Below are positions 4,077 to 33,049 of a stretch of DNA of 39,942 nt, in pieces. The notes below the pieces were generated by a model. That model was not told where the DNA came from. It was given only the letters and a program-made list of their open reading frames with translations, and did no database searches. The stretch covers positions 1-39,942 of the IMG/VR virus record IMGVR_UViG_3300044268_002096, one strand, 5' to 3'. The position numbers were made by a program, and so were the translations under genes. The stretch is from a virus (lineage: Duplodnaviria > Caudoviricetes). Position 1 is the stretch's first letter, and each line of letters opens with the position of its first letter.

Positions 4077-4256
4077 ATGGCGGCTAAAAAGAAAAAGAAA
4101 ACTACTAAAAAGAAAAAAGGAGCTACGCCAACTAATCCTGCATTATACGCGAGAGTAAAAGCCGAAGCTAAACGTAAATTTAAAGTTTACCCAAGTGCTT
4201 ATGCTAACGGTTGGTTAGTAAGAACGTATAAAAAACGTGGTGGTGGTTATAGGTAA
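4077..4256 (+). CDS. small basic protein (59 aa; DUF5872-like)
   Basis: Read manually: MAAKKKKKTTKKKKGATPTNPALYARVKAEAKRKFKVYPSAYANGWLVRTYKKRGGGYR. TAATG overlap with the next gene. Confidence 0.75.
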   Translation: MAAKKKKKTTKKKKGATPTNPALYARVKAEAKRKFKVYPSAYANGWLVRTYKKRGGGYR

Positions 4257-4552
4257 TGCCTAAGAAAAAACGCGACCCGAAAAAAGGCACAGGTAAAAAA
4301 CCAAAAGGTTCTGGTAGAAGGTTATACACTGATGAAAATCCAAAAGACACGGTTAGAATTAAGTTTGCAACACCTGCTGATGCTAGAGCAACAGTGGCTA
4401 AAGTTAAAAAAGTTAAAAAACCTTTTGCTAGAAAAATACAAATACTTACTGTTGGTGAGCAACGAGCTAAAGTTATGGGTAAAACACAAGTAGCTAGTAT
4501 TTTTAAACGCGGTAAAGAAGCGATTAGAAAAGCGAGGAAAAAAAGTGGCTAA
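4256..4552 (+). CDS. basic hypothetical protein
   Basis: 98 aa with a GTGKKPKGSGRRLYTDENPKDTV motif. Coupled to both neighbours. Confidence 0.75.
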   Translation: MPKKKRDPKKGTGKKPKGSGRRLYTDENPKDTVRIKFATPADARATVAKVKKVKKPFARKIQILTVGEQRAKVMGKTQVASIFKRGKEAIRKARKKSG

Positions 4553-4853
4553 ACCTAAAGGCGGTTTATCCGAATGGTTTGGTAAAGGACCTAAAGGTGA
4601 TTGGGTAGATATTGGTGCTCCTAAGAAAAAAGGTAAGTTTCAAAAATGTGGACGTAAATCCGCTAAAGGTAAATCTAAAAGAAAATATCCTAAATGCGTA
4701 CCTAGAGCTAAAGCTAAACGTATGACTGCAGCACAAAGACGTAGTGCGGTTAAAAGAAAAAGAGCAGCAGGTAATCCAGGAGGCAAACCTACTAACGTAA
4801 GAACGTTTGCTAAAAAGAAAACTACTACAAAAAGGAGAAAAAGACGTGCCTAG
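4545..4853 (+). CDS. basic hypothetical protein
   Basis: GTG start after GAGG. GGLxxWF...WVD and CGR...YPKCVP motifs. Confidence 0.75.
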   Translation: MAKPKGGLSEWFGKGPKGDWVDIGAPKKKGKFQKCGRKSAKGKSKRKYPKCVPRAKAKRMTAAQRRSAVKRKRAAGNPGGKPTNVRTFAKKKTTTKRRKRRA

Positions 4854-5130
4854 AAAAAAGGCAAAAATGCCTAAACGTAATAAAAAGAATTTTAGAGCGA
4901 CTAAAAAAGGTGCGGGCATGACGGCAGCAGGAGTAAAAGCGTATAGACGTATGAATCCTGGAAGTAAATTAAAAACTGCGGTTACAGGTAAAGTTAAAAA
5001 AGGCAGTAAAGCCGCTAAACGTCGTAAATCATTTTGTGCTAGGTCAGCAGGACAAATGAAAAAGTTTCCGAAAGCCGCAAAAAATCCTAATTCTAGGTTG
5101 AGACAAGCAAGAAAAAGATGGAAGTGTTAA
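4846..5130 (+). CDS. basic hypothetical protein (DUF6321-like)
   Basis: GTG 4846 follows AGGAG (same frame as track ORF 4807). NPGSKLK...RRKSFCARS...ARKRWKC motif. Confidence 0.7.
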   Translation: MPRKKAKMPKRNKKNFRATKKGAGMTAAGVKAYRRMNPGSKLKTAVTGKVKKGSKAAKRRKSFCARSAGQMKKFPKAAKNPNSRLRQARKRWKC

Positions 5131-6534: not shown

Positions 6535-6797
6535 TGGATAATATTGCAGTAATTATTAGTGAGTACGGTTTTCCAATAGTAGCTACCGTTGGGTTACTAT
6601 ATATTCTTTATTATATCTGGAACTTTATTACTAAAAATATAAAAGCTAAATTAGCAGACGCAAACGTTACCTTAATTGCTTTAATTGATCGAGTGCGTAT
6701 GTTAGATAACGATTTAATAAGATTACAACAGAAACTAGATACCGTGATTGAATTACGGGAGTTAAAAGATGAAGAGCCGAAAGAAGACGAAGAATGA
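6534..6797 (+). CDS. single-TM plus coiled-coil protein, paralog B
   Basis: ISEYGFPI-TM-...ALIDRVRMLDNDLIR. TAATG coupling. Confidence 0.7.
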   Translation: MDNIAVIISEYGFPIVATVGLLYILYYIWNFITKNIKAKLADANVTLIALIDRVRMLDNDLIRLQQKLDTVIELRELKDEEPKEDEE

Positions 6798-7266
6798 AAT
6801 AGCGTTCGAAAATATTTTTGCTTTAACAGGCATGTTTTTTATTATTTTTACAATAATTTATTCTTCTTTTAGCCAAGCCGATGAAATGAAATTTACTTTT
6901 AAAAGTCCTAGTTTTTCAGGAATAGCAACTTCAGCACATTATTTAACGATAGAAAACCAAGAAAATACTAGAAAACAAAGTATTACTGATGCGTTAAAAG
7001 CTGCTGCTGATGAAGCAGAACGAGATTTAAATAATAGCACTTTAGCTCGTTTTATTAGAAATTTAGAATCTAGAGTATATGCTAAATTATCACAACAATT
7101 AGTAGATAATTTATTTGGCGAAACGTCTTCTACCGCAGGTACTATTGAACTAGAAGGAAACAAGATAGACTATGTCTCTGATGATACTACGATTACACTT
7201 ACTATCACTGATGCCGACGGCGGCGAAACAATTATTACTTTTCCTCTTGATAGTTTTACTTTCTAG
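6769..7266 (+). CDS. csgF: curli secretion accessory protein CsgF
   Basis: Signal peptide (SQA-DE), then FTFKSPSFSG...YLTIENQE, like the CsgF N-terminus. FIRNLESRVYAKLSQQLVDNLFG follows. Directly upstream of CsgG. Confidence 0.8.
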   Translation: MKSRKKTKNEIAFENIFALTGMFFIIFTIIYSSFSQADEMKFTFKSPSFSGIATSAHYLTIENQENTRKQSITDALKAAADEAERDLNNSTLARFIRNLESRVYAKLSQQLVDNLFGETSSTAGTIELEGNKIDYVSDDTTITLTITDADGGETIITFPLDSFTF

Positions 7267-8017
7267 TTGTACTTTATTACAAACAGAACAAGCTATTGAA
7301 AACTTACAACCTTCAAGATTTGCTGAAGTTTCTGAAGTTATTAATGAAAACTTAGCTAATTTAGGTTTACCTAATATAAAACCTGTAGTGGCGGTATACC
7401 CTACCGCGTTCACTGATCAAACAGGACAACGTAGAAGTAATAGTACTTATGCTTCTTTTAGCACGGCAGTAACTCAAGCTCCTTATGCTTTATTAATAAA
7501 AGCGTTAAAAGATACTAGCAACGGTAATTTTTTCGAAGTAGTAGAACGTGTGGGTTTAGATAATTTAACAAAAGAACGACAATTAATCCGTAGTACTAGA
7601 AAAGATTTTAAAGAAGAACAAAAACTAAAACCTTTGTTATTTGCAGGTATTTTAATGGAAGGGGCAGTGGTTGGTTACGAAACTAATACACGTTCTGGCG
7701 GTTCTGGTGGTAGAGTATTAGGGATTGGGTTAAGTAAAGAATACCGACAAGATACCGTAACAATAAGTTTACGCACGGTCTCTGTACTCACGGGGCGAAT
7801 ACTTACCGAAGTTACGGTGACCAAAACTATTTTAAGTGTAGGTATTAACGAAGATATTTTTCGTTTTGTAAAAGATAATACTAGGTTAATCGAAATAGAA
7901 AACGGTAACGTAGAAAACGAAGGCGTAACCATAGCACTACAAGCAGCTATAGAAACAGCGGTTTACAAAACTATCATGGAAGGAATACAATATGATTATT
8001 GGAGTTTAAAACAATGA
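7211..8017 (+). CDS. csgG: curli secretion channel lipoprotein CsgG
   Basis: Lipobox LLSSC. FTDQTGQRR...FSTAVTQ, FEVVERVGLDNLTKERQLIR, EGAVVGYETN..SGG and YRQDTVTISLRTVSV motifs. Start at 7211 is inferred (track gives 7172). Confidence 0.92.
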   Translation: MPTAAKQLLLFLLIVLLSSCTLLQTEQAIENLQPSRFAEVSEVINENLANLGLPNIKPVVAVYPTAFTDQTGQRRSNSTYASFSTAVTQAPYALLIKALKDTSNGNFFEVVERVGLDNLTKERQLIRSTRKDFKEEQKLKPLLFAGILMEGAVVGYETNTRSGGSGGRVLGIGLSKEYRQDTVTISLRTVSVLTGRILTEVTVTKTILSVGINEDIFRFVKDNTRLIEIENGNVENEGVTIALQAAIETAVYKTIMEGIQYDYWSLKQ

Positions 8018-8724
8018 AAAAACAATTAATTTTATTAATAGTTTTATCTAATGTGCTTTGGTCAGCAGATAACGAAATATCTATTGACCAATCAGGTGCA
8101 ACGCTTAATGCCGATATAGAACAATTAGGTTCGGGTAACTTAATCGGTGGAGCTTCAGCAGTAGCAGGGACGATGACACCATTAGATTTAGACGGAACTA
8201 GCATGACTTTAGATATTAATCAAATAGGTTCTAGTAACTTATTTAAAGGAGATATCAACGCCGATAACTATATTGGGTTCTTTGAATTTTCTGGTTCTAG
8301 TAATATTTTTGATATTCAAACAGACCCTACTAATACTTATTCTACTGACGGTTCTAACGTAAATATTTCAGTAACGGGAACGGCTAACGATATGTCTTTA
8401 GACCAAGGCACCGCAGCAATAGCAACTACCTTAGATTTAGATTGGATTATAAACGGCTCAAACAATACTATTGATTCCGATATCGATGTAGACTTAGCTA
8501 CTAATTATATGAACGTTGATGGTTCTGATAATACTATCAATTATAACGGCGATGGTTATCAAGGCGGTCATTTTCACCTGAACCATACAGGAGGCTCTAG
8601 AGCTATAAATGTTACACAAGCTTCAACACTCGATAACGATTGGCTACGTGTCATTTCTAATGGTTCTAATGGTACTTTCTGTATCATCCAAAACGATCAA
8701 GGCACAGCAACTAGCTGCCCTTGA
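8014..8724 (+). CDS. secreted curlin-like (CsgA/CsgB-type) beta-solenoid protein
   Basis: Signal peptide, then about 8 repeats of hydrophobic-x-(Q)-x-G-x-x-N (IEQLGSGN, INQIGSSN, FSGSSN, VTGTAN, INGSNN, VDGSDN). Asn/Ser/Gly/Asp-rich, follows csgG, GGAG RBS. Confidence 0.7.
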   Translation: MKKQLILLIVLSNVLWSADNEISIDQSGATLNADIEQLGSGNLIGGASAVAGTMTPLDLDGTSMTLDINQIGSSNLFKGDINADNYIGFFEFSGSSNIFDIQTDPTNTYSTDGSNVNISVTGTANDMSLDQGTAAIATTLDLDWIINGSNNTIDSDIDVDLATNYMNVDGSDNTINYNGDGYQGGHFHLNHTGGSRAINVTQASTLDNDWLRVISNGSNGTFCIIQNDQGTATSCP

Positions 8725-9763
8725 GATAGGAGCTATCGAAGAAGTATCTGGTTACGGACAAATAAGCCGCGATAAGGATTATAAAGCGGTAGTAGCATTT
8801 AATTTACAAGCTAACGATGAAGCTAAAACCGAACAAGGTAGATTAGGTTTACGTTTTGCTGATGATAGTAAAGTTAAATTAACTGAACATTCTACGTTAA
8901 TTATTGACGAATATATTTACGACCCTAATCCGACTAAAAGTAAATTAGCGTTATCTTTTGCTAAAGGTACGGCTCGTTTTGTAACAGCTAAATTTAGTGC
9001 TATCCCTAAAGAAAATATGACGATTCGTACCGATTCAGCTACGGTAGCGATTCGTGGTACTGATTTTACTATTACGGTAGAACCCGATACAGGCGAAAGT
9101 TTATTTATTTTATTACCTGATGAGTTCGGTAATCCTTCAGGAGAAATATCGGTAACTACAGCTATGGGTGAGGTAATTTTAAATCAAGCATATCAAGCAA
9201 CTACGACTACTACATTAGAAGCTAGTCCTAGCCCGCCTGTAATTTTAGATTTGTCGTTAGAGTTTATTGATAATATGTTAATTGTTACGCCACCTAAAAA
9301 AGCAGTACGTGTAGAGGAGGAGGAAAAACAAGAATTAAAAGACCCTATTTTAGATTTTAACGATTTAGATTTTGATTATTTAGCCGAAGAAAATTTAAAA
9401 GAAGATGAACAATTAGATTTCACTGAATTAGATTACGACGCATTAAACGTAAACTTTTTAGAAGATTTATTAAATATTTTAAATGAATTAGATAGTTTAG
9501 CTGACGATGATCAATTAGATCAATCAGCTACGTCTTCAACTATTCAAGGCACTAATATTGGTCAAGATACAAAAACTCAAATTACTACAGTAGTTTCAGG
9601 AGCACAAATAAGTTTAAATAGAACCGTAGGACAAGGTGCTACTTTAAATATTGATAGCGATAATAGTTATACGGTAATTTTAGAACAAGACGGTATTATG
9701 AACGAAGTTAAAGTAAACGGTGGTAGTGATTCAACAATAAATATTAGACAGGGGTCGGGGTGA
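8609..9763 (+). CDS. FecR-domain periplasmic protein with acidic linker
   Basis: LRFADDSKVKLTEHSTLII, GTARF and TDSATVAIRGTDF are FecR-family motifs. N-terminal hydrophobic stretch. Exact start uncertain. Confidence 0.8.
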   Translation: MLHKLQHSITIGYVSFLMVLMVLSVSSKTIKAQQLAALEIGAIEEVSGYGQISRDKDYKAVVAFNLQANDEAKTEQGRLGLRFADDSKVKLTEHSTLIIDEYIYDPNPTKSKLALSFAKGTARFVTAKFSAIPKENMTIRTDSATVAIRGTDFTITVEPDTGESLFILLPDEFGNPSGEISVTTAMGEVILNQAYQATTTTTLEASPSPPVILDLSLEFIDNMLIVTPPKKAVRVEEEEKQELKDPILDFNDLDFDYLAEENLKEDEQLDFTELDYDALNVNFLEDLLNILNELDSLADDDQLDQSATSSTIQGTNIGQDTKTQITTVVSGAQISLNRTVGQGATLNIDSDNSYTVILEQDGIMNEVKVNGGSDSTINIRQGSG

Positions 9764-11517
9764 AATATTTAAAAATTATTGCAATTATAGCAGTATTAAG
9801 TTTGCCGTTAGTTTTTAGTTTAGCTCCGCAAGAAATATTAAAATTAAAAACTTTTGATACGTTTGTTAAAACTCCTGAACCTTCAGGTAATTTTGTTGTG
9901 TTAAATATTACCGAAGAAGACGTTGATAATGAAGGTGGTTATCCTTTTCCTAGACAAAGATTAGCAGAAATACAAGTAGAATTATTAAACCAAGGAGCGT
10001 TAGGCGTTGGTTGGGTTATTGGTTTTCCTCATAAAGATCGTTTTGGTGGTGATAGTAATTTTAAAACTGCTCTTAGTTATGCTCCTTCGGTATTAGCATT
10101 GTTTGAAAATCCTAATGGTGAATACCCCGATACCGTAGGCACTGTTATTATGGGAGAAGGTAACGGTGGTTATTTAGCTCAAGGTACTATAAGAAATATA
10201 CCCGAACTAAAAGCGAATGAAGGAATAGCTACCGCTCCCGTAGACGTAGATAACTTAGTTAGACGTATACCGCTTCTATATAGGACGCCTAACGGGTGGT
10301 TACCCGCTTTCGGTACCGAAGTACTAAAAGCTCTAACAGGGGCTAATACGTACGTTATTAAGACTAATACGAACGGTATAGAAGAAGTACGGGTAAAAGG
10401 TTTACCTGCCGTTAAAACGGATGGTTTAGGACGTAAGTGGGTAAGTTGGGTAGATACTCCAGAAACTAATTTGCAAGAGTTAGCCGTACAAAATAAATTT
10501 GTTTTTGTAGGCGTTACTGCTAAAGGCGTAATGCCGCAGTTAGCTACCCCAGTTGGATTACTTGAACCACACAAGGTACAAGCAGCACTAGCAGAATCAA
10601 TATTGGTAGAAAATAGTCCATTTATCCCCGACTACAGTTTAGCCGTTGAAGTTTTAATATTAGTTATATCCCTGCTTTTAGTTTGGGTTGTGTTGAGCAA
10701 CTTAGGCGTTACTGCAGGGGTTCTTTGTTTTAGTGCTATTATGTCTAGCACCGCTATCGGAGGATATTATGCCATACAACAAGGACTATTAATAGATACA
10801 ACGTGGACTTTAATTAGTGAATTTATAACAGGAACGATTGCTTTTTATTTACGTTTCCGTGAACAATATAAATTACGTTTAGAAATTAAAAAACAATTCG
10901 AACATTATCTAGACCCTAGACAAGTAAAACAACTACAAAAGAACCCTGAGTTATTAAAATTAGGTGGTGAAAAAAGGTACGCTACTTTTTTATTTACTGA
11001 TGTACGAGGTTTTACCGCTTTATCAGAAGCCGTAACCCCAGAAAAAGTAACTTATATTATGAATAAAGCTCTTACTGCTCAACAAGCCGCAGTACAAAAA
11101 CACGGTGGTATGGTTGATAAATATATTGGTGATGCTATGATGGCTATATTTAATGCTCCTTTAGATATATTACATCATGAACAAATAGCGGTAGATTGTG
11201 CTAAAGATATTTGGCAAAATATGGCTGAACTTAATATAGAACTCCAAGCGGAAGGACTTCCTGCAGTAGCCATAGGCATAGGAGTAAACACAGGAGAAGC
11301 AGTAATCGGTAATATGGGTTCTTCTTCACGATTTGATTATACTGCTATTGGTGATGCGGTAAATACTGCGGCTAGGTTAGAATCAGGTACAAAAGATGCA
11401 GGAGTAGATATTTTAATAGGTGAAAATACGGAAAGTAGGTGTGGTTATCATTTAAAACCATTAAAACCTATAAAAGTAAAAGGCAAAGAAAAACCTTTAA
11501 AAATATATACTGTATGA
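9760..11517 (+). CDS. CHASE2-domain membrane adenylyl cyclase (class III)
   Basis: N-terminal TM, CHASE2 motifs (GGYPFPR, DVDNLVRRIPL), three more TMs, then cyclase motifs FTDVRGFT, DKYIGDAMM, GIGVNTG and DYTAIGDAVNTAARLE. Confidence 0.92.
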   Translation: MKYLKIIAIIAVLSLPLVFSLAPQEILKLKTFDTFVKTPEPSGNFVVLNITEEDVDNEGGYPFPRQRLAEIQVELLNQGALGVGWVIGFPHKDRFGGDSNFKTALSYAPSVLALFENPNGEYPDTVGTVIMGEGNGGYLAQGTIRNIPELKANEGIATAPVDVDNLVRRIPLLYRTPNGWLPAFGTEVLKALTGANTYVIKTNTNGIEEVRVKGLPAVKTDGLGRKWVSWVDTPETNLQELAVQNKFVFVGVTAKGVMPQLATPVGLLEPHKVQAALAESILVENSPFIPDYSLAVEVLILVISLLLVWVVLSNLGVTAGVLCFSAIMSSTAIGGYYAIQQGLLIDTTWTLISEFITGTIAFYLRFREQYKLRLEIKKQFEHYLDPRQVKQLQKNPELLKLGGEKRYATFLFTDVRGFTALSEAVTPEKVTYIMNKALTAQQAAVQKHGGMVDKYIGDAMMAIFNAPLDILHHEQIAVDCAKDIWQNMAELNIELQAEGLPAVAIGIGVNTGEAVIGNMGSSSRFDYTAIGDAVNTAARLESGTKDAGVDILIGENTESRCGYHLKPLKPIKVKGKEKPLKIYTV

Positions 11518-24028: not shown

Positions 24029-25552
24029 ATGTCGTTAGCAGAGCAATTTGCTATACGATATGCGGGGCTACGCCAAGCATACGGGACGTTCACAGCTACT
24101 GATGATCTGCGAGAGGACGGTAAAGCAAACGGAAAAAATGTAACTATCTCTAAAGAGTTATCTGACGATGATCTTCTAAAATTATGGGAAGGTCATCTGT
24201 CGGGTGAGCAAAGTGTAGGGATTGTACCTATAGACGAAAACAACATGTGTGTTTGGGGTGCTATAGACGTTGATGAATATCAACTAGATTTAAAAGGTTT
24301 GGCTAAAAAATTAGTTAAACATAAATTACCGTTAGTGCTTTGTCGTAGTAAAAGTGGTGGAGCACATATTTATCTTTTTATAGAAGAACCTGTTTCAGCT
24401 AGTTTATTACAACGTAAGTTACGGCAGTTAGCGGCTTCTATTGGCTTCGGACAAGCAGAGATATTTCCTAAACAAACACAGTTGTTGTTAGAACGTGGCG
24501 ATAGAGGTAGCACTTTAAATATGCCTTACTTCGGAGGTGAAAACTCTACCCGTTATGCTTACGGTAATAAAGGTCAAGCTCTAACTCCTGAGGAGTTTTT
24601 AAAATACACCGAAGAAATTACGTTTACTAAAGCTGATTTAGAAAAATACGAAGCGACACCTTTAACCGAGTCCGTTGATTGGTTAGACCAAGCACCGCCT
24701 TGTTTACAGCATTTAGTTGTACAGGGTTTTCCTAAAGGTACAAGGAACTCTGGTTTATTTAACGTAGGTGTGTTTTTACGTAAGAAATACCCAGACGATT
24801 GGGAAAAACGTTTAGAAGATGTAAATATGCAATACATGCAACCGCCGCTAGGAGCACAAGAAGTATTAACGATAGGCAAACAATTACAACGTAAAGATTA
24901 TTTTTATCGGTGTAATGATCAGCCGATAGCTAGTCATTGTAATAGTCCTTTATGTAGGACTAGAAAGCATGGCATAGGGGCTAATGGTGGTACGCCACTA
25001 TTTAGTAATTTAACTAAACAAGACAGTGATCCGCCTATTTGGTTTTTAGATGTAGAAGGGGGTAGATTAGAATTAGAAACAGATGATTTATTAAATCAAA
25101 ATAGATTTCAACGTAAATGTATGGATGCGTTAAATAAAATACCGCCGAAAGTAAAAGAAAACGTTTGGCGACAAATAATACAACAGTTACTAGATTCGTT
25201 GACCGTAGTAGAAGTACCTAAAGAATCTTCTACCGAAGGACATTTTATGGAGTTGTTAGAAGCGTTTTGTACAGAAAGACCTGCTAGAGAACGTGATGAA
25301 TTATTATTACATAAACCTTGGACAGATAAAAATAAAACTTATTTTAGGTTAGCAGATTTGATGGAGTATTTACATAGACATAATTTTAAAGAATACCAAC
25401 GTAATAGATTAACTTCTAAATTAAAACAATTAAATGGTGAGCCATACTTTTTTAATATTAAAGGCAAAGGTATTAATGTTTGGTACATAGATGAATTTGT
25501 AGCTCAAGACGAAGAACACGACTTACCTAATTTTGATGATAGTTTATTATGA
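24029..25552 (+). CDS. primase, AEP/Prim-Pol type with C-terminal primase domain
   Basis: WGAIDVD (DxD), RSKSGGAH (SxxH), EIFPKQ, LNMPY, PPC and GTRN motifs. Confidence 0.8.
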   Translation: MSLAEQFAIRYAGLRQAYGTFTATDDLREDGKANGKNVTISKELSDDDLLKLWEGHLSGEQSVGIVPIDENNMCVWGAIDVDEYQLDLKGLAKKLVKHKLPLVLCRSKSGGAHIYLFIEEPVSASLLQRKLRQLAASIGFGQAEIFPKQTQLLLERGDRGSTLNMPYFGGENSTRYAYGNKGQALTPEEFLKYTEEITFTKADLEKYEATPLTESVDWLDQAPPCLQHLVVQGFPKGTRNSGLFNVGVFLRKKYPDDWEKRLEDVNMQYMQPPLGAQEVLTIGKQLQRKDYFYRCNDQPIASHCNSPLCRTRKHGIGANGGTPLFSNLTKQDSDPPIWFLDVEGGRLELETDDLLNQNRFQRKCMDALNKIPPKVKENVWRQIIQQLLDSLTVVEVPKESSTEGHFMELLEAFCTERPARERDELLLHKPWTDKNKTYFRLADLMEYLHRHNFKEYQRNRLTSKLKQLNGEPYFFNIKGKGINVWYIDEFVAQDEEHDLPNFDDSLL

Positions 25553-26130
25553 TTAAATTTTATAAAAGTAAATTTAACGGATTTAACCCATTGATAATGG
25601 AGTGGGACGAACCTGTAAATAGAAGGTTTAACGGAAAAGAAATACAAGGTAGAAGAACTAAAGCGTTTGGCACTGCTGATTTCGAATACGCAGGTAGACT
25701 GTATAAACCTGTGCCTTGGACACAACCTATGAATTATATCAAAGGTAATTTAGAAACTTTTATAAAACAAGAATTTGGTAGAACCGTTGATTTTAATTTT
25801 TGTTTATGTGGTTATTATGGTATTGATGGTAAAGGTATACCACATCATTCTGATACTGTACCAACGTTAGATGATTTAGTTGTTTCTATATCGTTTGGTT
25901 CGCCTAGACTATTTCAGTGGCAAGAATATAAACGTAATATTAAAGAACATACTGCAACAAGTAAAATCAACACACACTACATACCTAAGAAAAGATTGAC
26001 TAATTATTTAATGGAAAATGGTGATACTTTCGTATTTGATGGTCGCTCACAGATGAAAGCTACTCATGCAGTACCTGATGTTATAGGTGGTGGAGAGCGG
26101 GTTAATTTAACTTTTAGGACAGGGATATGA
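25549..26130 (+). CDS. AlkB-like 2OG-Fe(II) dioxygenase
   Basis: HSD...H iron triad (PHHSD, THAVP), SISFGSPR and terminal RVNLTFR. Confidence 0.85.
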   Translation: MIKFYKSKFNGFNPLIMEWDEPVNRRFNGKEIQGRRTKAFGTADFEYAGRLYKPVPWTQPMNYIKGNLETFIKQEFGRTVDFNFCLCGYYGIDGKGIPHHSDTVPTLDDLVVSISFGSPRLFQWQEYKRNIKEHTATSKINTHYIPKKRLTNYLMENGDTFVFDGRSQMKATHAVPDVIGGGERVNLTFRTGI

Positions 26131-27623: not shown

Positions 27624-27629
27624 AAGTTC

Positions 27630-27659
27630 TTTACTTTGCACGTAAAAGTAAAGGATAAT
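27630..27659 (+). promoter_or_regulatory. phage promoter for the base-modification/PolA operon
   Basis: TTTACT-N18-GATAAT, then AGAAAGGAG RBS. Confidence 0.6.
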
Positions 27660-27694
27660 AAAATATATGATTAATTTTTTAGAAAGGAGAATAT

Positions 27695-28546
27695 ATGTCA
27701 TCAATTAGAAAGAAACTTACTGTTAATGAGAACGACAGTAAAAATACTAGAATGGACCTTGCTTCGGCAGGGGTGTTAGGTAACTGGCGACCTGATGAAC
27801 TAGCTCATATGAGTCGGTTTGATAAAATCGCTAGTTTAGCTATAGATGAAGCTAAAGTTTTAGATAGACCGCTAGATACTTTAGAAGTTGGTTGTGGGGA
27901 ATGTTGGGCGTTACGTTGTTTATATAAAGCATACGTAGTTAAAAAATCCGATATTATAAGTTCGTATTATGGTTACGATATTGATCCTGCTTGTGAATTA
28001 GAAAATAAGTTTTGGTCTAATGCAGGTGGTAAATTAGAAGAATCGACTTGGTTTAAAAACTTTAACGGACAAATAAGAATACAAGATTTAACAGTAAATC
28101 CTGTGTTTGATTTACCTGATGAAAGTATAGACTTTTTCTGGTCTACCGAAGTTATTGAACATATGGGTAGAGAGTTTGTACCCGCGTGGTTAGATGATGT
28201 AGCTAGGGTTATGCGACCCAATGCACTAGGTTATGTTTCTACACCTAACCATGACGGGTCAAACGATAAATTACCTGAAGACCACGTTTATGAGTGGGGT
28301 TTCGAAGAACTAAAAGAAGAACTAGAACGTAATTTTAATATTGAAGCGGTTACGGGTACGTTTATACAGATGCCTAATTTAAAGAAAGCTAGGTTTGATG
28401 GTACGCGTGATAAATACTTAGAGTGGACAGACCAACAAATGATTATGTTAACTGAACGTTTCGGCAAACAGTTCTTACGTATGGCAGCAGCAACTATGTA
28501 TCCTGAACATGCTAATAACTGTGCTTGGAGACTAACTAAGAAGTAA
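27695..28546 (+). CDS. class I SAM-dependent methyltransferase (small-molecule type)
   Basis: LEVGCG motif I, GYDID motif II, IQDL, DFFWSTEVIEHM and STPN. No DPPY/NPPY or PC motif. Confidence 0.85.
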   Translation: MSSIRKKLTVNENDSKNTRMDLASAGVLGNWRPDELAHMSRFDKIASLAIDEAKVLDRPLDTLEVGCGECWALRCLYKAYVVKKSDIISSYYGYDIDPACELENKFWSNAGGKLEESTWFKNFNGQIRIQDLTVNPVFDLPDESIDFFWSTEVIEHMGREFVPAWLDDVARVMRPNALGYVSTPNHDGSNDKLPEDHVYEWGFEELKEELERNFNIEAVTGTFIQMPNLKKARFDGTRDKYLEWTDQQMIMLTERFGKQFLRMAAATMYPEHANNCAWRLTKK

Positions 28547-29463
28547 TGTTTATTGCAGAAGAACTTGATAGATATTTTTACTGGCAAGAAGAACGGGAAA
28601 GTATTCGTAAAAAGAAAGAAAATGATTTACCGCCCCCTTGGACTAATGATCCTATCTTACAAGAGTTTAAATTCTGTCAAGTTTATCGAGAAGAAGATAG
28701 AACTACTCGGTGGCTTAGAAAACATATTAGAGAACCGTTACGAGACGACCCTAGAGTTTTTATGGCAGTAATAATTTTTAGGTGGTTTAATTTAATAGAA
28801 ACAGGAAGGACATTAATAGAAAATGATTTATTGTTTAATTGGAATAGAAAGAAAGCTATTGAACTTATTAGACAACAACCTAAATGGATTACTGGTTCTT
28901 ATATTATTAAAACCCCTAATCGTATGGATAAAGTTACAGGAGTATCTGAATGTATAAGTCATATGTGGAACGACAGAGATTATTTGGTGACTAAATTAGA
29001 AAATGAAAAAGCATTAAACAATTCTTCTTTAGAGTTTTGTTGGGAAACTCTACGAGATTATCCTTACATGGGTCCATTTATGGCGTACGAGGTTGTTACT
29101 GATTTAAGACATACTTATTTATTAGATGAAGCTAATGATATTATGACTTGGGCTAACGCAGGTCCAGGAGCTATGCGAGGTCTTAACCGTTTGACAGGTA
29201 GACCATTAGAGTATTGTTTACGTAGTCATGATTGGAACGGTGAGATGCAAGAGTTATTAAAAATAGCTTTTGAAAGAAACTCTTGGGTTACTAAAAGAAA
29301 CTCTGTTAACTATGAATTAAGGGAGATAGAGGGAGGTTTGTGTGAGTTTGATAAATACTCACGTATTCTTAAAAAAGAAGGTAGAACACGCTCTATCTAT
29401 AAACAAAACGACTTGCCTATAGTTGAAGATGTAGTAGCAGGTAAAAGCAAATACGAACTATGA
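28546..29463 (+). CDS. 5-hydroxymethyluracil-DNA kinase-like protein (aGPT-pyrophosphorylase clade 1 family)
   Basis: ERESIR...PWTNDPILQEFKFCQVYREEDRTT, FRWFN, GPFMAYEVVTDL, GPGAMRGL and EIEGGLCEFDKY motifs. Adjacent to a thymidylate synthase homolog. Confidence 0.78.
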   Translation: MFIAEELDRYFYWQEERESIRKKKENDLPPPWTNDPILQEFKFCQVYREEDRTTRWLRKHIREPLRDDPRVFMAVIIFRWFNLIETGRTLIENDLLFNWNRKKAIELIRQQPKWITGSYIIKTPNRMDKVTGVSECISHMWNDRDYLVTKLENEKALNNSSLEFCWETLRDYPYMGPFMAYEVVTDLRHTYLLDEANDIMTWANAGPGAMRGLNRLTGRPLEYCLRSHDWNGEMQELLKIAFERNSWVTKRNSVNYELREIEGGLCEFDKYSRILKKEGRTRSIYKQNDLPIVEDVVAGKSKYEL

Positions 29464-30530
29464 AAGTAATAACCGCACGAAATATAAACGACGCTTTTAG
29501 ATTAGGTGTCGATTTCTTTTTAGAAAAAACTAATTATCGAGAACAAGAAAGTAGAAACGGGTTGACGTTAGAAGCAGTAGAACCAGTAGCTACGGTCTAT
29601 CAAAAACCTACGGAACGTGTATTGTTTTGTGAAAAACGCGACGCTAATCCTTTTTTCCATTTTATAGAAGGGCTATGGATGTTACATGGACGTAAAGATT
29701 TAAGACCATTGACTTTTTTTGTAGAGTCTATGCGAGATTTTTCTGATGATAATGAGACTCTATGGGGGGCTTACGGTTGGCGTTGGCGAGATTATTTTGA
29801 TAAAGATCAATTAGAAATTATTATCGCTATGTTACATCGTAACCCAGACGATAGACGGGCAGTATTACAGATGTGGGACGTTAAAGAAGATTTAGATAGA
29901 GACGGTAAAGACGTACCTTGTAATACGAATATTTATTTTAAAGTTAGAGATAAAAAACTAAATATGACTGTTTGTAATCGTTCCAACGATATGCTTTGGG
30001 GAGCTTATGGTGCTAACGCAGTACATATGTCGATGTTACAAGAGTACCTTGCTTCGAGATTAGAAATAGCTGTTGGTGAATATACTCAAATTAGCGATAG
30101 TTTTCATGTTTATCAAAACGATGTTTGGGAGCGTTGTAAAGAGTTAGGGGTTATTGATATTTATAGTTGGCGTTCTACTAAAAACGATTATGAATATATT
30201 AAACAAAAAGACCTTGTGCCTTTAATAACTCATTCTAAAACTTTTCAGTGGGAATTAGATTTATTTTTTGCGGCGTTTGATGATGTTATAACTACAGGTA
30301 AAACGTTCTCAACTAAAGAATATACAGGACCGATAAAAACTTTTCAAAATCCGTCTATACGAGATATAGCAATACCTATGGTTAATGCTTATCTTTTTCA
30401 TAAGCGTAGACGTTACGAGGATTCTTATGCTTGGATTAATAAAATTAAAGCATACGATTGGATGAAAGCGTGTTTCGAATGGGTCCGCAAACGAGACACT
30501 ACTTTTACATTAAAACTTGCGGACAACTAA
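29460..30530 (+). CDS. thymidylate synthase homolog, probable dUMP hydroxymethylase
   Basis: DDRRAV, DVPCN (catalytic Cys), RSND-x9-N (uracil-specifying Asn) and SFHVY. Divergent from canonical ThyA and next to the 5hmU kinase-like gene. Confidence 0.8.
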   Translation: MKVITARNINDAFRLGVDFFLEKTNYREQESRNGLTLEAVEPVATVYQKPTERVLFCEKRDANPFFHFIEGLWMLHGRKDLRPLTFFVESMRDFSDDNETLWGAYGWRWRDYFDKDQLEIIIAMLHRNPDDRRAVLQMWDVKEDLDRDGKDVPCNTNIYFKVRDKKLNMTVCNRSNDMLWGAYGANAVHMSMLQEYLASRLEIAVGEYTQISDSFHVYQNDVWERCKELGVIDIYSWRSTKNDYEYIKQKDLVPLITHSKTFQWELDLFFAAFDDVITTGKTFSTKEYTGPIKTFQNPSIRDIAIPMVNAYLFHKRRRYEDSYAWINKIKAYDWMKACFEWVRKRDTTFTLKLADN

Positions 30531-30540
30531 GGAGCAAATT

Positions 30541-30897
30541 ATGGCGATTAGTAATTGGGAAGCTATGAAAGATATAGCCCAAAACGACCTAGAAGCGTTA
30601 AAAAGAGCTGAAGTTTCTTACGGTGACTCTTGGAAACGTAGAGGTGGCGTAGGGGCTTTTATGATGTTAGCACGTAAGTTCGATAGGATAGAACACCAGT
30701 CTGAAAAACACGGGTGGGATATCTTTGAAGCAGGTGAAGCATTTAAAGGCGAAGCAGGACTACTAGATGATATCCGCGATTTACGTAGATATTTATTATT
30801 AGTAGAAAACGATATTTTAATAAATGATTCTGAGCAAGAGAGTAAAGCAGTTTATTCTGAAACAGTAACCTCAGAAGGCATACCAACAGGAGATTAA
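30541..30897 (+). CDS. nucleotide-modification-associated all-alpha protein, putative dNTP pyrophosphatase
   Basis: SYGDSWK...RKFDRI...DDIRDLRRY resembles DUF1599/MazG-like folds. GGAG RBS before ATG 30541. Confidence 0.55.
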   Translation: MAISNWEAMKDIAQNDLEALKRAEVSYGDSWKRRGGVGAFMMLARKFDRIEHQSEKHGWDIFEAGEAFKGEAGLLDDIRDLRRYLLLVENDILINDSEQESKAVYSETVTSEGIPTGD

Positions 30898-30899
30898 TT

Positions 30900-31187
30900 A
30901 TGAGTTTATGGCAAAGCATTAAAAATTTATTTTTTACAGACAATACTAAAAAACCTGTAGAAACTAAAGATGAAAAAGTTTTAGCAGAAGCTATAGAAGA
31001 AGCTACGGTGACTTTAGATAAATTTGAAGAGGAAGTAGCGGAAGTAAAACGAGCACGTGGTAAAAAAGGTAAGTTCATTGCAGACGACCCTAATACCCCT
31101 GATGTAAACGAAGCATGGGTAGGTGGTAAAGCTCCAAAGAAAAAGAAACCTAAAGCTAAAGTTACTAAGATCGTTAAGAAAAAGTAA
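30900..31187 (+). CDS. hypothetical protein with basic tail
   Basis: RARGKKGKFIADDPNTPDVNEAW motif. AGGAG RBS. Confidence 0.7.
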   Translation: MSLWQSIKNLFFTDNTKKPVETKDEKVLAEAIEEATVTLDKFEEEVAEVKRARGKKGKFIADDPNTPDVNEAWVGGKAPKKKKPKAKVTKIVKKK

Positions 31188-31189
31188 TT

Positions 31190-33049
31190 ATGCAACAACC
31201 ACTTTTTGCTCCTGAGAGTTCTTGGTCTGTGCCTGAAGTGTTTCCGCAGTTTTCGGAAACAGAAACAGTAGCAGTAGACTTAGAAACTTACGATCCACAT
31301 CTAATGACTTGTGGTCCAGGCTGGGCTACAAGTCGTGGGTATATCGTAGGTATTGGGGTAGCTACTGAAAAGTGGTCTGGTTATTTTCCTATTCGTCATC
31401 AAGGCGGTGGTAATTTAGATGAAGATATTGTTTTACGTTGGCTACGTAATCTACTTAGCTCTACTAAACGAGACGTTATATTTCATAACGCCCTCTATGA
31501 TGTAGGTTGGTTAAGGCGAGAAGGCGTAGAAATAAAAGGCAATATTCTAGATACTATAGTTGCCGCACCGCTAGTTGATGAACATCGCTATTCTTATTCG
31601 TTAGATAATCTAGGTGAGTTTTATTGTAACGAAAAGAAAGATGAATCGTTATTACGTGATGCTGCTCTAGCTTTCGGTATCAATCCTAAATCAGAGATGT
31701 ATAAACTACCTGCAAAATATGTTGGTCCTTACGGGCAACAAGATGCAGCGTTGACTTTAAAACTTTGGCATAAATTAAAAGCTGAAGTCGTTGCTCAAGA
31801 TTTAGAAAAGATATTAGCTATGGAGTGTCGTCTAATACCGTTGTTATTAGAAATGCGATGGCGTGGCGTTAGAATAGATGAAGAACGAGCCGAGCAAGTT
31901 AGTAAACAGCTCTCTACCGAAGAACAAAAGTTACAAGTAGAAATAAAACGTAAGTATGGTGCTGAAGTTAATCTTTGGGCTAACGCTTCGTTACAAGAGA
32001 TATTTGATAAGAATAAACTTTGGTACCCGCATACTGCAAAAGGTATGGCTAGTTTTCAAAAAGACTGGTTAGAAGGACATGAGCATGAACTACCGCAGTT
32101 GATCGTTAGGGCTAGAAAACTAAATAAAGCTAGAACAACGTTTATTGAAAAGATGATTCAAGAACATTGTTTTAACGGCAGGATACACGCGGAAGCCCAT
32201 GCTATGCGTAATGATCGTGGCGGCACGGTTAGCGGTCGGTTTAGTTATAGTAATCCTAATCTACAACAAGTACCTGCTCGTGATCCTGAGATAGGCAATC
32301 TTATTCGTTCTTTATTTATTCCTGAAGACGGTTGTCAGTGGGGGGTATTTGATTATTCTCAACAAGAACCTAGACTTACCGTACATTATGCTGATCAGAT
32401 GAACTTAACAGGAGCAAAAGACGCAGTAGCTCAGTATACTAACGATAATGCTGACTTTCATCAGATCGTAGCAGATATGGCAAAAATACCACGTAAACAA
32501 GCTAAGACGATAAATCTAGGACTTAGCTATGGTATGGGTAAAGAAAAACTAATTAAAGAACTAGGTGTTGATGATTTAGAAGCGGAAGCTCTATTTCTAC
32601 AATACCATGAGAAAGTACCTTTTATTAGAGCTTTACAAGATTATTGCACTCGCGTAGCTATGGATAGAGGATATATAAAAACTTTTGCAGGTAGACGATG
32701 TCGTTTTGATTTATGGGAAAATAAATACGAACGCTCTACTCCGTTGCCTTTAAAAGACGCACAAGAAAAATACGGAGATAATTTAAAAAGATCATTTACA
32801 TATAAAGCCCTTAATAGATTAATTCAAGGCTCAGCAGCTGATATGACTAAATTAGCGATGTTAGGTCTATGGGAACAAGGTATTGTTCCGCACCTACAAG
32901 TACACGATGAAGTTGATGTTTCGGTAGTTGATCAAGAACAAGCTCTACTTATTTCTAAAACAATGCAAGATTGCGTAAAATTAGCAGTGCCGTTGTTAGT
33001 AGATGTAGAACTTGGTAAATCTTGGGGTGAAACAAAGGAGATACTATGA
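31190..33049 (+). CDS. polA: DNA polymerase family A (3'-5' exonuclease plus polymerase), Leu762 type
   Basis: Exo motifs DLET, HNALYD and YGQQD. Polymerase motifs SGRFS..NPNLQQ, DYSQQEPR (A), KTINLGLSYGM (B) and VHDE (C). No 5'-3' exonuclease domain. Confidence 0.95.
   Translation: MQQPLFAPESSWSVPEVFPQFSETETVAVDLETYDPHLMTCGPGWATSRGYIVGIGVATEKWSGYFPIRHQGGGNLDEDIVLRWLRNLLSSTKRDVIFHNALYDVGWLRREGVEIKGNILDTIVAAPLVDEHRYSYSLDNLGEFYCNEKKDESLLRDAALAFGINPKSEMYKLPAKYVGPYGQQDAALTLKLWHKLKAEVVAQDLEKILAMECRLIPLLLEMRWRGVRIDEERAEQVSKQLSTEEQKLQVEIKRKYGAEVNLWANASLQEIFDKNKLWYPHTAKGMASFQKDWLEGHEHELPQLIVRARKLNKARTTFIEKMIQEHCFNGRIHAEAHAMRNDRGGTVSGRFSYSNPNLQQVPARDPEIGNLIRSLFIPEDGCQWGVFDYSQQEPRLTVHYADQMNLTGAKDAVAQYTNDNADFHQIVADMAKIPRKQAKTINLGLSYGMGKEKLIKELGVDDLEAEALFLQYHEKVPFIRALQDYCTRVAMDRGYIKTFAGRRCRFDLWENKYERSTPLPLKDAQEKYGDNLKRSFTYKALNRLIQGSAADMTKLAMLGLWEQGIVPHLQVHDEVDVSVVDQEQALLISKTMQDCVKLAVPLLVDVELGKSWGETKEIL

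Follow-up and report, generated by a model that had tools for sequence, protein, structure and literature searches.

Kinase-free loci in marine phages point to a predicted O-methyltransferase for 5-hydroxymethyluracil in DNA

What becomes of 5-hydroxymethyluracil (5hmU) in a phage that appears to make this base and carries a methyltransferase gene where enzymes of thymidine hypermodification would be expected? The question is raised by positions 27,630 to 33,049 of the IMG/VR virus record IMGVR_UViG_3300044268_002096 (Duplodnaviria; Caudoviricetes). The whole stretch of 39,942 nucleotides is called the window here and is a partial phage genome, 65% complete. An original prediction, made from the sequence alone, suggested that the product may be a novel methylated base, either a methyl ester of phosphorylated 5hmU or an O-methylated 5hmU. 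Our comparisons make the first option unlikely, whereas O-methylation of 5hmU to 5-methoxymethyl-uracil is the best reading of the locus, with a probability of roughly 0.5.

The locus lies between a UvrD helicase gene and the gene for a family A DNA polymerase with a 3'-5' exonuclease (PolA; 31190..33049; PF00476, PF01612). Its first three genes, on the plus strand like the rest of the run, encode a methyltransferase of 283 residues (MT; 27695..28546), a PF18723 protein of 305 residues (28546..29463) and a thymidylate-synthase-fold enzyme (29460..30530; PF00303). The MT gene is coupled to the second gene by a TAATG overlap (28544-28548), as the original prediction had noticed, and the second gene overlaps the synthase gene by ATGA (29460-29463). 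This arrangement is well conserved. Of 80 relatives, 74 share the order MT, PF18723 protein, synthase, small protein and PolA, and the remaining six end early; the order persists at about 53-56% MT identity. When the 80 loci were anchored on PF18723, MT was present in 75; four had too little upstream DNA and one had no full open reading frame (ORF). The MT and PF18723 genes overlap or abut in 70/77 loci.

The synthase groups with those of phages M6, PaMx11 and phiJL001, to which it is 41-43% identical along its whole length (41.5% to M6 gp58 and 43% to phiJL001 gp24). Its best solved match is CMP 5-hydroxymethylase (E 1.5e-19, versus 3e-13 for a true thymidylate synthase), and it scores far under the NCBIfam cut-offs for ordinary thymidylate synthases. 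Asn186 aligns with the Asn of thymidylate synthase (the E. coli N177 position) and with the Asp of CMP hydroxymethylase; Asn or Asp at this position marks uracil- or cytosine-type specificity, respectively. Both Cys154 and Asn186 are invariant in 72/72 distinct relatives, which bears out the earlier recognition of a thymidylate synthase homolog with the uracil-specifying Asn. The protein is likely a dUMP hydroxymethylase with 5-hydroxymethyl-dUMP as its predicted product. That the phage makes 5hmU DNA, as had been proposed, is likewise likely given the kinship of its synthase with the M6 group, and M6 has been described as replicating with 5hmdU (PMC8989533).

MT was correctly named a methyltransferase dependent on S-adenosylmethionine (SAM): it matches PF13489 (E 2e-8) and also PF08241, and its model has a predicted local distance difference test (pLDDT) score of 94.9. 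A family profile search collected 121 representatives at E <=1e-10, and an alignment of 80 rows was analyzed. Conserved features include H38, a GCG motif, ExxEH, STP, H197 and E200; H156, H197 and G221 are invariant, and E152 and E155 are kept in at least 90% of the rows. In the window protein these residues form the Hen1-type motif E152xxE155H156...H197. The best solved matches of the family profile were HEN1 (7e-14) and UbiG (1e-13), in a set that comprised human HENMT1, UbiG and bacterial and plant Hen1. The EhhEH, STPN and H-x-x-EW (DHxxEW) motifs align between the MT family and HEN1/UbiG, and E152, E155, H156 and H197 align with the equivalents of HEN1 E796, E799, H800 and H860, which we take to be metal-binding residues. 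Residues of the EhhEH and H-x-x-EW type are conserved in the HEN1 active site, and HEN1 itself resembles a small-molecule enzyme (PMC1397878), so that the small-molecule look of MT is compatible with a nucleic-acid substrate. On sequence and model, MT is a class I enzyme of a phage family with a Hen1-type motif, and it is predicted to be a 5-hydroxymethylpyrimidine O-methyltransferase.

When bacterial genomes were scanned with one MT as the query, there were six partial matches (25-32% identity) and no full-length member, and the cultured phages matched were AXL3 and PW916 only. The NCBIfam Hen1 model did not match the window MT, and AXL3 gp31 reached 28 bits where the cut-off is 340. With a narrow MT alignment, a single solved chain was found at E 0.001, and Foldseek searches with the MT model returned 500 generic methyltransferases and one uncharacterised phage protein (template modelling score 0.72). 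Many relatives, not including the window, carry an optional 160-residue gene directly before MT (for example, L014:9516-10001); it encodes a pyrimidine-dimer glycosylase (PF03013) and was rejected as a member of the pathway.

Additional evidence comes from other genomic contexts of the MT family, which has members in AXL3, PW916, two GenBank phages and 27 IMG/VR loci. In this AXL3-type cassette, MT heads a block of genes for MazG, a deoxynucleoside monophosphate (dNMP) kinase, an Asp-type synthase and a dCMP deaminase. AXL3 MT is 28% identical to the window MT and keeps all motif residues. The synthase Asp aligns with that of CMP hydroxymethylase and was found in 26/27 IMG/VR loci of this type, versus Asn in 75/80 window relatives; in the remaining loci, the fetched stretch does not include the gene. 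Neither a 5hmU-type kinase nor either clade of transferase was detected in the four GenBank AXL3-type genomes, and five complete IMG/VR genomes of this type also had no such kinase. AXL3 is a cultured phage with a modification reported as unknown, whose DNA resists 35 of 37 restriction enzymes, the two cutters having A/T-only sites (PMC7504290); cutting at A/T-only sites is as predicted by an Asp-type, i.e., cytosine, synthase. A third branch of the MT tree (L221, L319 and L320; 100/100 support) is also paired with an Asp-type synthase, and MT is linked to a modified-pyrimidine synthase in three separate branches. Common to nearly all these contexts is a predicted 5-hydroxymethyl pyrimidine, which may be the shared substrate.

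One run of the third branch (L319:7480-11154; also L221:2-2566) contains genes for a clade-2 transferase, a 5hmU-type DNA kinase, MT, a kinase-like ORF and an Asp-type synthase, and suggests kinase/transferase hypermodification on 5-hydroxymethylcytosine (5hmC) rather than 5hmU. L320, the sister of L319, has neither a kinase nor a clade-2 transferase beside MT.

The second gene had been taken for a 5hmU-DNA kinase, and this assignment does not hold. Its product matches PF18723 over the full length (148 bits, cut-off 25; E 4.7e-43), a family that Pfam names '5-hmdU DNA kinase, helical domain'; this is its sole Pfam match, and PF18748 and PF18724 are not among the matches. In M6, PF18723 corresponds to gp55, PF18748 to the kinase gp54 and PF18724 to the transferase gp51. 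Compared with these M6 proteins, the one from the window shares 36.5% identity with gp55 and matches neither gp54 nor gp51. Demonstrated 5hmU-DNA kinases are P-loop proteins throughout (PMC8989533, Table 1), and no P-loop is present here. The model (pLDDT 91.9) is all-helical, with no strands of at least 3 residues. Its fold matches are DUF2419 (Z 10.8), 8-oxoG glycosylase (9.8) and the PaMx11 gp46 transferase (9.5; root-mean-square deviation, rmsd, 4.3 over 221 residues); the top 25 consist of helix-hairpin-helix glycosylases, DUF2419 and gp46, with Z values of 10.8 or less, which is modest for a helical protein. Foldseek found no match for this model at E 0.001.

By sequence and model, we assign this protein to clade 1 of aGPT-Pplase, with a helix-hairpin-helix glycosylase/transferase fold, as the ortholog of M6 gp55. 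The aGPT-Pplase families were reportedly defined by Iyer et al. in 2013. The protein first read as a kinase is, as judged by its alignments, a paralog of the very transferase believed to be absent and apparently retains the catalytic cysteine; E262 and C266 are invariant among its relatives. The Pfam name of PF18723 misleads annotation and likely stems from SP10, in which the C-terminal part of gp186 (L228:17383-19296) is PF18723 fused to PF18748; kinase activity of gp186 is kept without this part (PMC8989533). The clade labels of M6 gp51 and gp55 are swapped in Table 3 of PMC5889632, and we follow Pfam and the later paper. No clade-2 gene was found in SP10 by a search that is insensitive to this clade, PMC5889632 likewise lists none, and clade 1 may be the glutamate transferase of SP10.

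Absent genes were surveyed in 21 relatives that are 94-100% complete, with M6 and PaMx11 as positive controls, both of which were detected. PF18723 and MT were each present in 21/21. None of the 21 had a P-loop kinase (PF18748), a clade-2 transferase (PF18724), a TAGT glycosyltransferase over the cut-off, a sister-clade glycosyltransferase or a dCMP deaminase. There is no PF18748 kinase in the window, and an unfiltered custom kinase profile, which passed a leave-one-out control (E 5e-31), had no match in the window, in either of two whole relatives or in any of 80 loci. As stated originally, no clade-2 transferase is recognisable in the window (no Pfam match; custom profile, best E 0.36), and the recommended search beyond it gave the same answer. 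This search is insensitive, as its control failed and the L319 gene was missed, and the clade-2 absence is weaker than the kinase absence. Among 157 loci, we found no homolog of the P-loop kinase, the clade-2 transferase, or the pyridoxal phosphate (PLP) or radical-SAM enzymes. Pfam was also run on 107 selected proteins, most of which came from two whole relatives. One of the two has MazG and the other dUTPase, the majority of the proteins had no match, neither a kinase nor a glycosyltransferase appeared, and the sole Walker A motif was in UvrD. Co-occurrence of MT with a kinase, proposed earlier as a check, is seen in two distant contigs, L221 and L319, and in 0/21 near-complete relatives. 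In some PaMx11-like clusters (L250:2325-2795 and L305:4701-5183), a low-molecular-weight phosphatase (PF01451) directly precedes the 5hmU kinase and could reverse or limit phosphorylation.

A wider PF18723 scan took the best 80 of 300 loci, of which 78 were scored and 2 had no full ORF. MT accompanied PF18723 in 41, a kinase in 16, TAGT in 8 and none of these in 13, with no mixing of the three in any of the 78 loci. Because MT, kinase and TAGT alternate beside PF18723, clade 1 and the synthase form a constant core with a swappable module, and clade 1 stands outside the variable module. Several of the 13 loci with none of the three encode an FkbM methyltransferase and a GT-B glycosyltransferase (two loci were scanned). 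In a pelagiphage-like sister clade (L236:8816-11096, L241:8902-11236 and similar loci among L239-L247), these two genes are located between clade 1 and the synthase, possibly for a methylated sugar on 5hmU.

In the pathway we propose, the synthase would produce 5-hydroxymethyl-dUMP, PolA would make DNA with 5hmU replacing T, and MT, with SAM as the donor, would methylate the oxygen of the 5-hydroxymethyl group, so that 5-methoxymethyl-uracil arises with no phosphorylation step. The methyl ether would be the simplest product because a 5-hydroxymethyl pyrimidine is shared among contexts and the site is of the O-methyltransferase type; that AXL3-type genomes have no other recognisable modifier supports it as well. 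All enzyme activities in this scheme are predicted, the methyl group and the oxygen atom are suggested by the Hen1/UbiG-like site, and the modification would presumably protect against host nucleases. We prefer methylation on DNA over methylation at the nucleotide level, since MT occupies the place of DNA-level enzymes. The virion DNA of M6, ViI, SP10 and phiW-14 has no 5hmU left, all of it becoming modified base or T, and a 5hmU-to-T step occurs in M6-type phages (PMC8989533). Our guess is that the clade-1 protein could carry out this step, turning leftover 5hmU into T via its cysteine, because it is present with every module and its cysteine is suited to exocyclic-methylene chemistry. The full scheme, in which one phage family O-methylates both 5-hydroxymethyl pyrimidines (to 5-methoxymethyl-uracil in marine phages and 5-methoxymethyl-cytosine in AXL3-type phages) and clade 1 converts leftover 5hmU to thymine, is somewhat more tentative than the formation of 5-methoxymethyl-uracil by itself.

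Several observations weigh against O-methylation. In fold searches with MT, HEN1 was at rank 20 (Z 16.0, rmsd 3.0, 191 aligned residues; best Z 17.5) and was not singled out among many near-tied N-, O- and C-methyltransferases. The loci come from related and partly near-identical phages, and their counts are not independent. Neither a dCMP deaminase nor a dNMP kinase, the latter also sought beyond the window as suggested, was found in relatives, so the supply would rest on the host. A divergent clade-2 transferase could be encoded elsewhere, given that the search missed the L319 gene. The resistance of AXL3 DNA is equally explained by unmethylated 5hmC. In L221 and L319, the gene immediately preceding MT is a true kinase, L319 has a clade-2 transferase as well, and MT is thus not always exclusive of the kinase route. 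An MT that is 56% identical to the window MT (L222:5119-5970) adjoins primase and AAA genes in an unrelated phage fragment of 26 kb, 33% complete, that contains no synthase. Finally, SP10 makes glutamyl-T and yet only a clade-1 domain was found in it, by a search insensitive to clade 2, so that clade 1 may itself be a transferase.

This last point leads to an alternative that we consider unlikely, i.e., that the clade-1 protein is a kinase-independent transferase. Cys266 would attack C6, expel water from 5hmU and add an amine or amino acid, and MT would methylate the adduct. Cys266, in an E-x-x-x-L-C motif, lines up with Cys247 of PaMx11 gp46, a protein of the same fold, and Cys247 is catalytic (PMC11472151); this sequence alignment is weak (E 0.38). 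The close coupling of the MT and clade-1 genes, the SP10 case and the pairing of MT with a clade-2 transferase in L319 are also consistent with such a route. However, the glycine adduct of M6 is formed without a need for gp55 (PMC8989533), AXL3-type phages keep MT with neither transferase clade, and clade 1 is also found with glycosyltransferase modules.

It is less probable that the synthase makes a product other than 5-hydroxymethyl-dUMP, such as 5-hydroxy-dUMP, which would then give 5-methoxy-uracil, or plain dTMP with MT acting elsewhere. The thymidylate synthase fold by itself does not separate methylases, hydroxymethylases and hydroxylases, and the relatives have no detected dCMP deaminase, but the full-length identity to the M6, PaMx11 and phiJL001 synthases, the use of 5hmdU by M6, the CMP hydroxymethylase match and the low scores against ordinary thymidylate synthase models argue against it. 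Somewhat more doubtful again is the transfer of another SAM-derived group (carboxymethyl or aminocarboxypropyl) onto the hydroxymethyl oxygen. Enzymes of this kind occur within the class I fold, the tied fold matches include CmoA (Z 16.1) and a phage carboxymethyl-cytosine has been reported (PMC12783734), whereas HEN1 and UbiG, the nearest solved profile relatives, use plain methyl. The route named first in the original prediction, phosphorylation of 5hmU on DNA followed by methylation of the phosphate, is very improbable. A true kinase directly before MT in L221 and L319 speaks for it, but its first enzyme is absent here: the protein taken for it has no P-loop, kinase activity in SP10 does not need the PF18723 domain, and no true kinase was found in the 21 relatives or the 80 loci. 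Equally improbable is a role for MT outside the base pathway, either as a Hen1-like RNA 2'-O-methyltransferase or as a small-molecule enzyme. The HEN1 profile match and the L222 context would allow it, but the synthase linkage in three branches of the MT tree argues against it.

The remaining parts of the locus were also examined. A gap of 71 nucleotides downstream of the UvrD gene (27624..27694, plus strand) contains an AGGAG ribosome site (27685-27689) and a weak promoter-like match (27630-27659; score 9/12). Because the region has 14 promoter-like sites versus 20.0 +/- 4.2 in shuffles, this match is no better than chance, and of the operon first described (a promoter, four genes and PolA) the gene run and PolA were retained and the promoter was not. 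The run also contains five ORFs rather than four, as a Lys/Glu-rich ORF of 95 residues (30900..31187, plus strand) had been overlooked; it is present in 54/80 relatives and is non-core. A conserved protein of 118 residues (30541..30897, plus strand; ATG at 30541 after AAGGAG, tool-called start TTG at 30517) is kept in 76/80 relatives. It had been labeled a dNTP pyrophosphatase. It has no Pfam match, and an atlas feature score of 0.97 places it near a viral cluster in which 11% of the members carry DUF1599; it is possibly a DUF1599/MazG-like nucleotide pyrophosphatase. Contigs from RNA libraries (4 runs, 3 studies) overlap parts of every cassette gene, evidence of a kind that cannot show transcription or modified bases.

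Elsewhere in the window, an AlkB-like 2-oxoglutarate-Fe(II) oxygenase gene (25549-26130) lies between primase and helicase genes; it occupies the same place in only 57/80 relatives and was rejected as part of the cassette core. A curli block (6769-11517; CsgG, curlin repeat, FecR and CHASE2-adenylate cyclase) is known for this phage group (PMC9599517). Three small, strongly Lys/Arg-rich ORFs (4256-5130) follow the lysozyme gene, and the equivalent region of one relative matches DUF6321.

Among known systems, the M6 (5-NedU) and PaMx11 (5-AcNmdU) clusters (PMC5889632, PMC8989533) resemble the window in that clade 1 precedes a synthase of the same group and then PolA, with variable genes directly upstream of clade 1. 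They differ in the kinase, clade-2 transferase, PLP/radical-SAM and dCMP deaminase genes, which were not found here, where a single MT is in that position. The phiJL001 cluster shares the kinase-free core of clade 1 and synthase, with a TAGT glycosyltransferase in place of MT. AXL3/PW916-type phages share the MT family but have a cytosine-type synthase, no clade-1 gene and a layout like the T4 hydroxymethylcytosine pathway. HEN1 small-RNA 2'-O-methyltransferases and UbiG share the class I fold and active-site motifs; unlike HEN1, the window MT is a stand-alone domain in a context of DNA base synthesis. HTVC023P-type pelagiphages share with the window both the pairing of synthase and aG/PT-PPlase1 close to PolA and the curli/FecR/adenylate cyclase block (PMC9599517). 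The window phage appears by gene-content likeness to be of this type, with its host inferred likewise. Wittmers et al. have already reported the pair in pelagiphage clades V, VIII and IX and treat it as M6-like; the accessible main text does not contain the word 'methyl' or discuss the kinase and transferase absence (PMC9599517).

Literature searches, whose coverage left out most subscription papers, revealed no description of MT or of a methoxymethyl base in phage DNA. 5-Methoxymethyl-uracil in phage DNA is probably undescribed, consistent with the earlier suggestion that MT points to an undescribed base. The marine phage group is widespread and occurs in many seawater samples; 14 runs cover half of the window stretch or more, all flagged as possible sources. 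If the proposed pathway is correct, this group would have a new natural DNA base and a new DNA-modifying activity, and methylation would join sugars and kinase-driven transfer as a third way of capping the hydroxymethyl handle. As a reagent, an enzyme acting on 5hmC or 5hmU by methylation would also serve to map those bases, and the MT family is testable on the cultured phage AXL3. The kinase-free core further isolates the question of the role of clade-1 aGPT-Pplase and of the return of 5hmU to T in M6-type phages.

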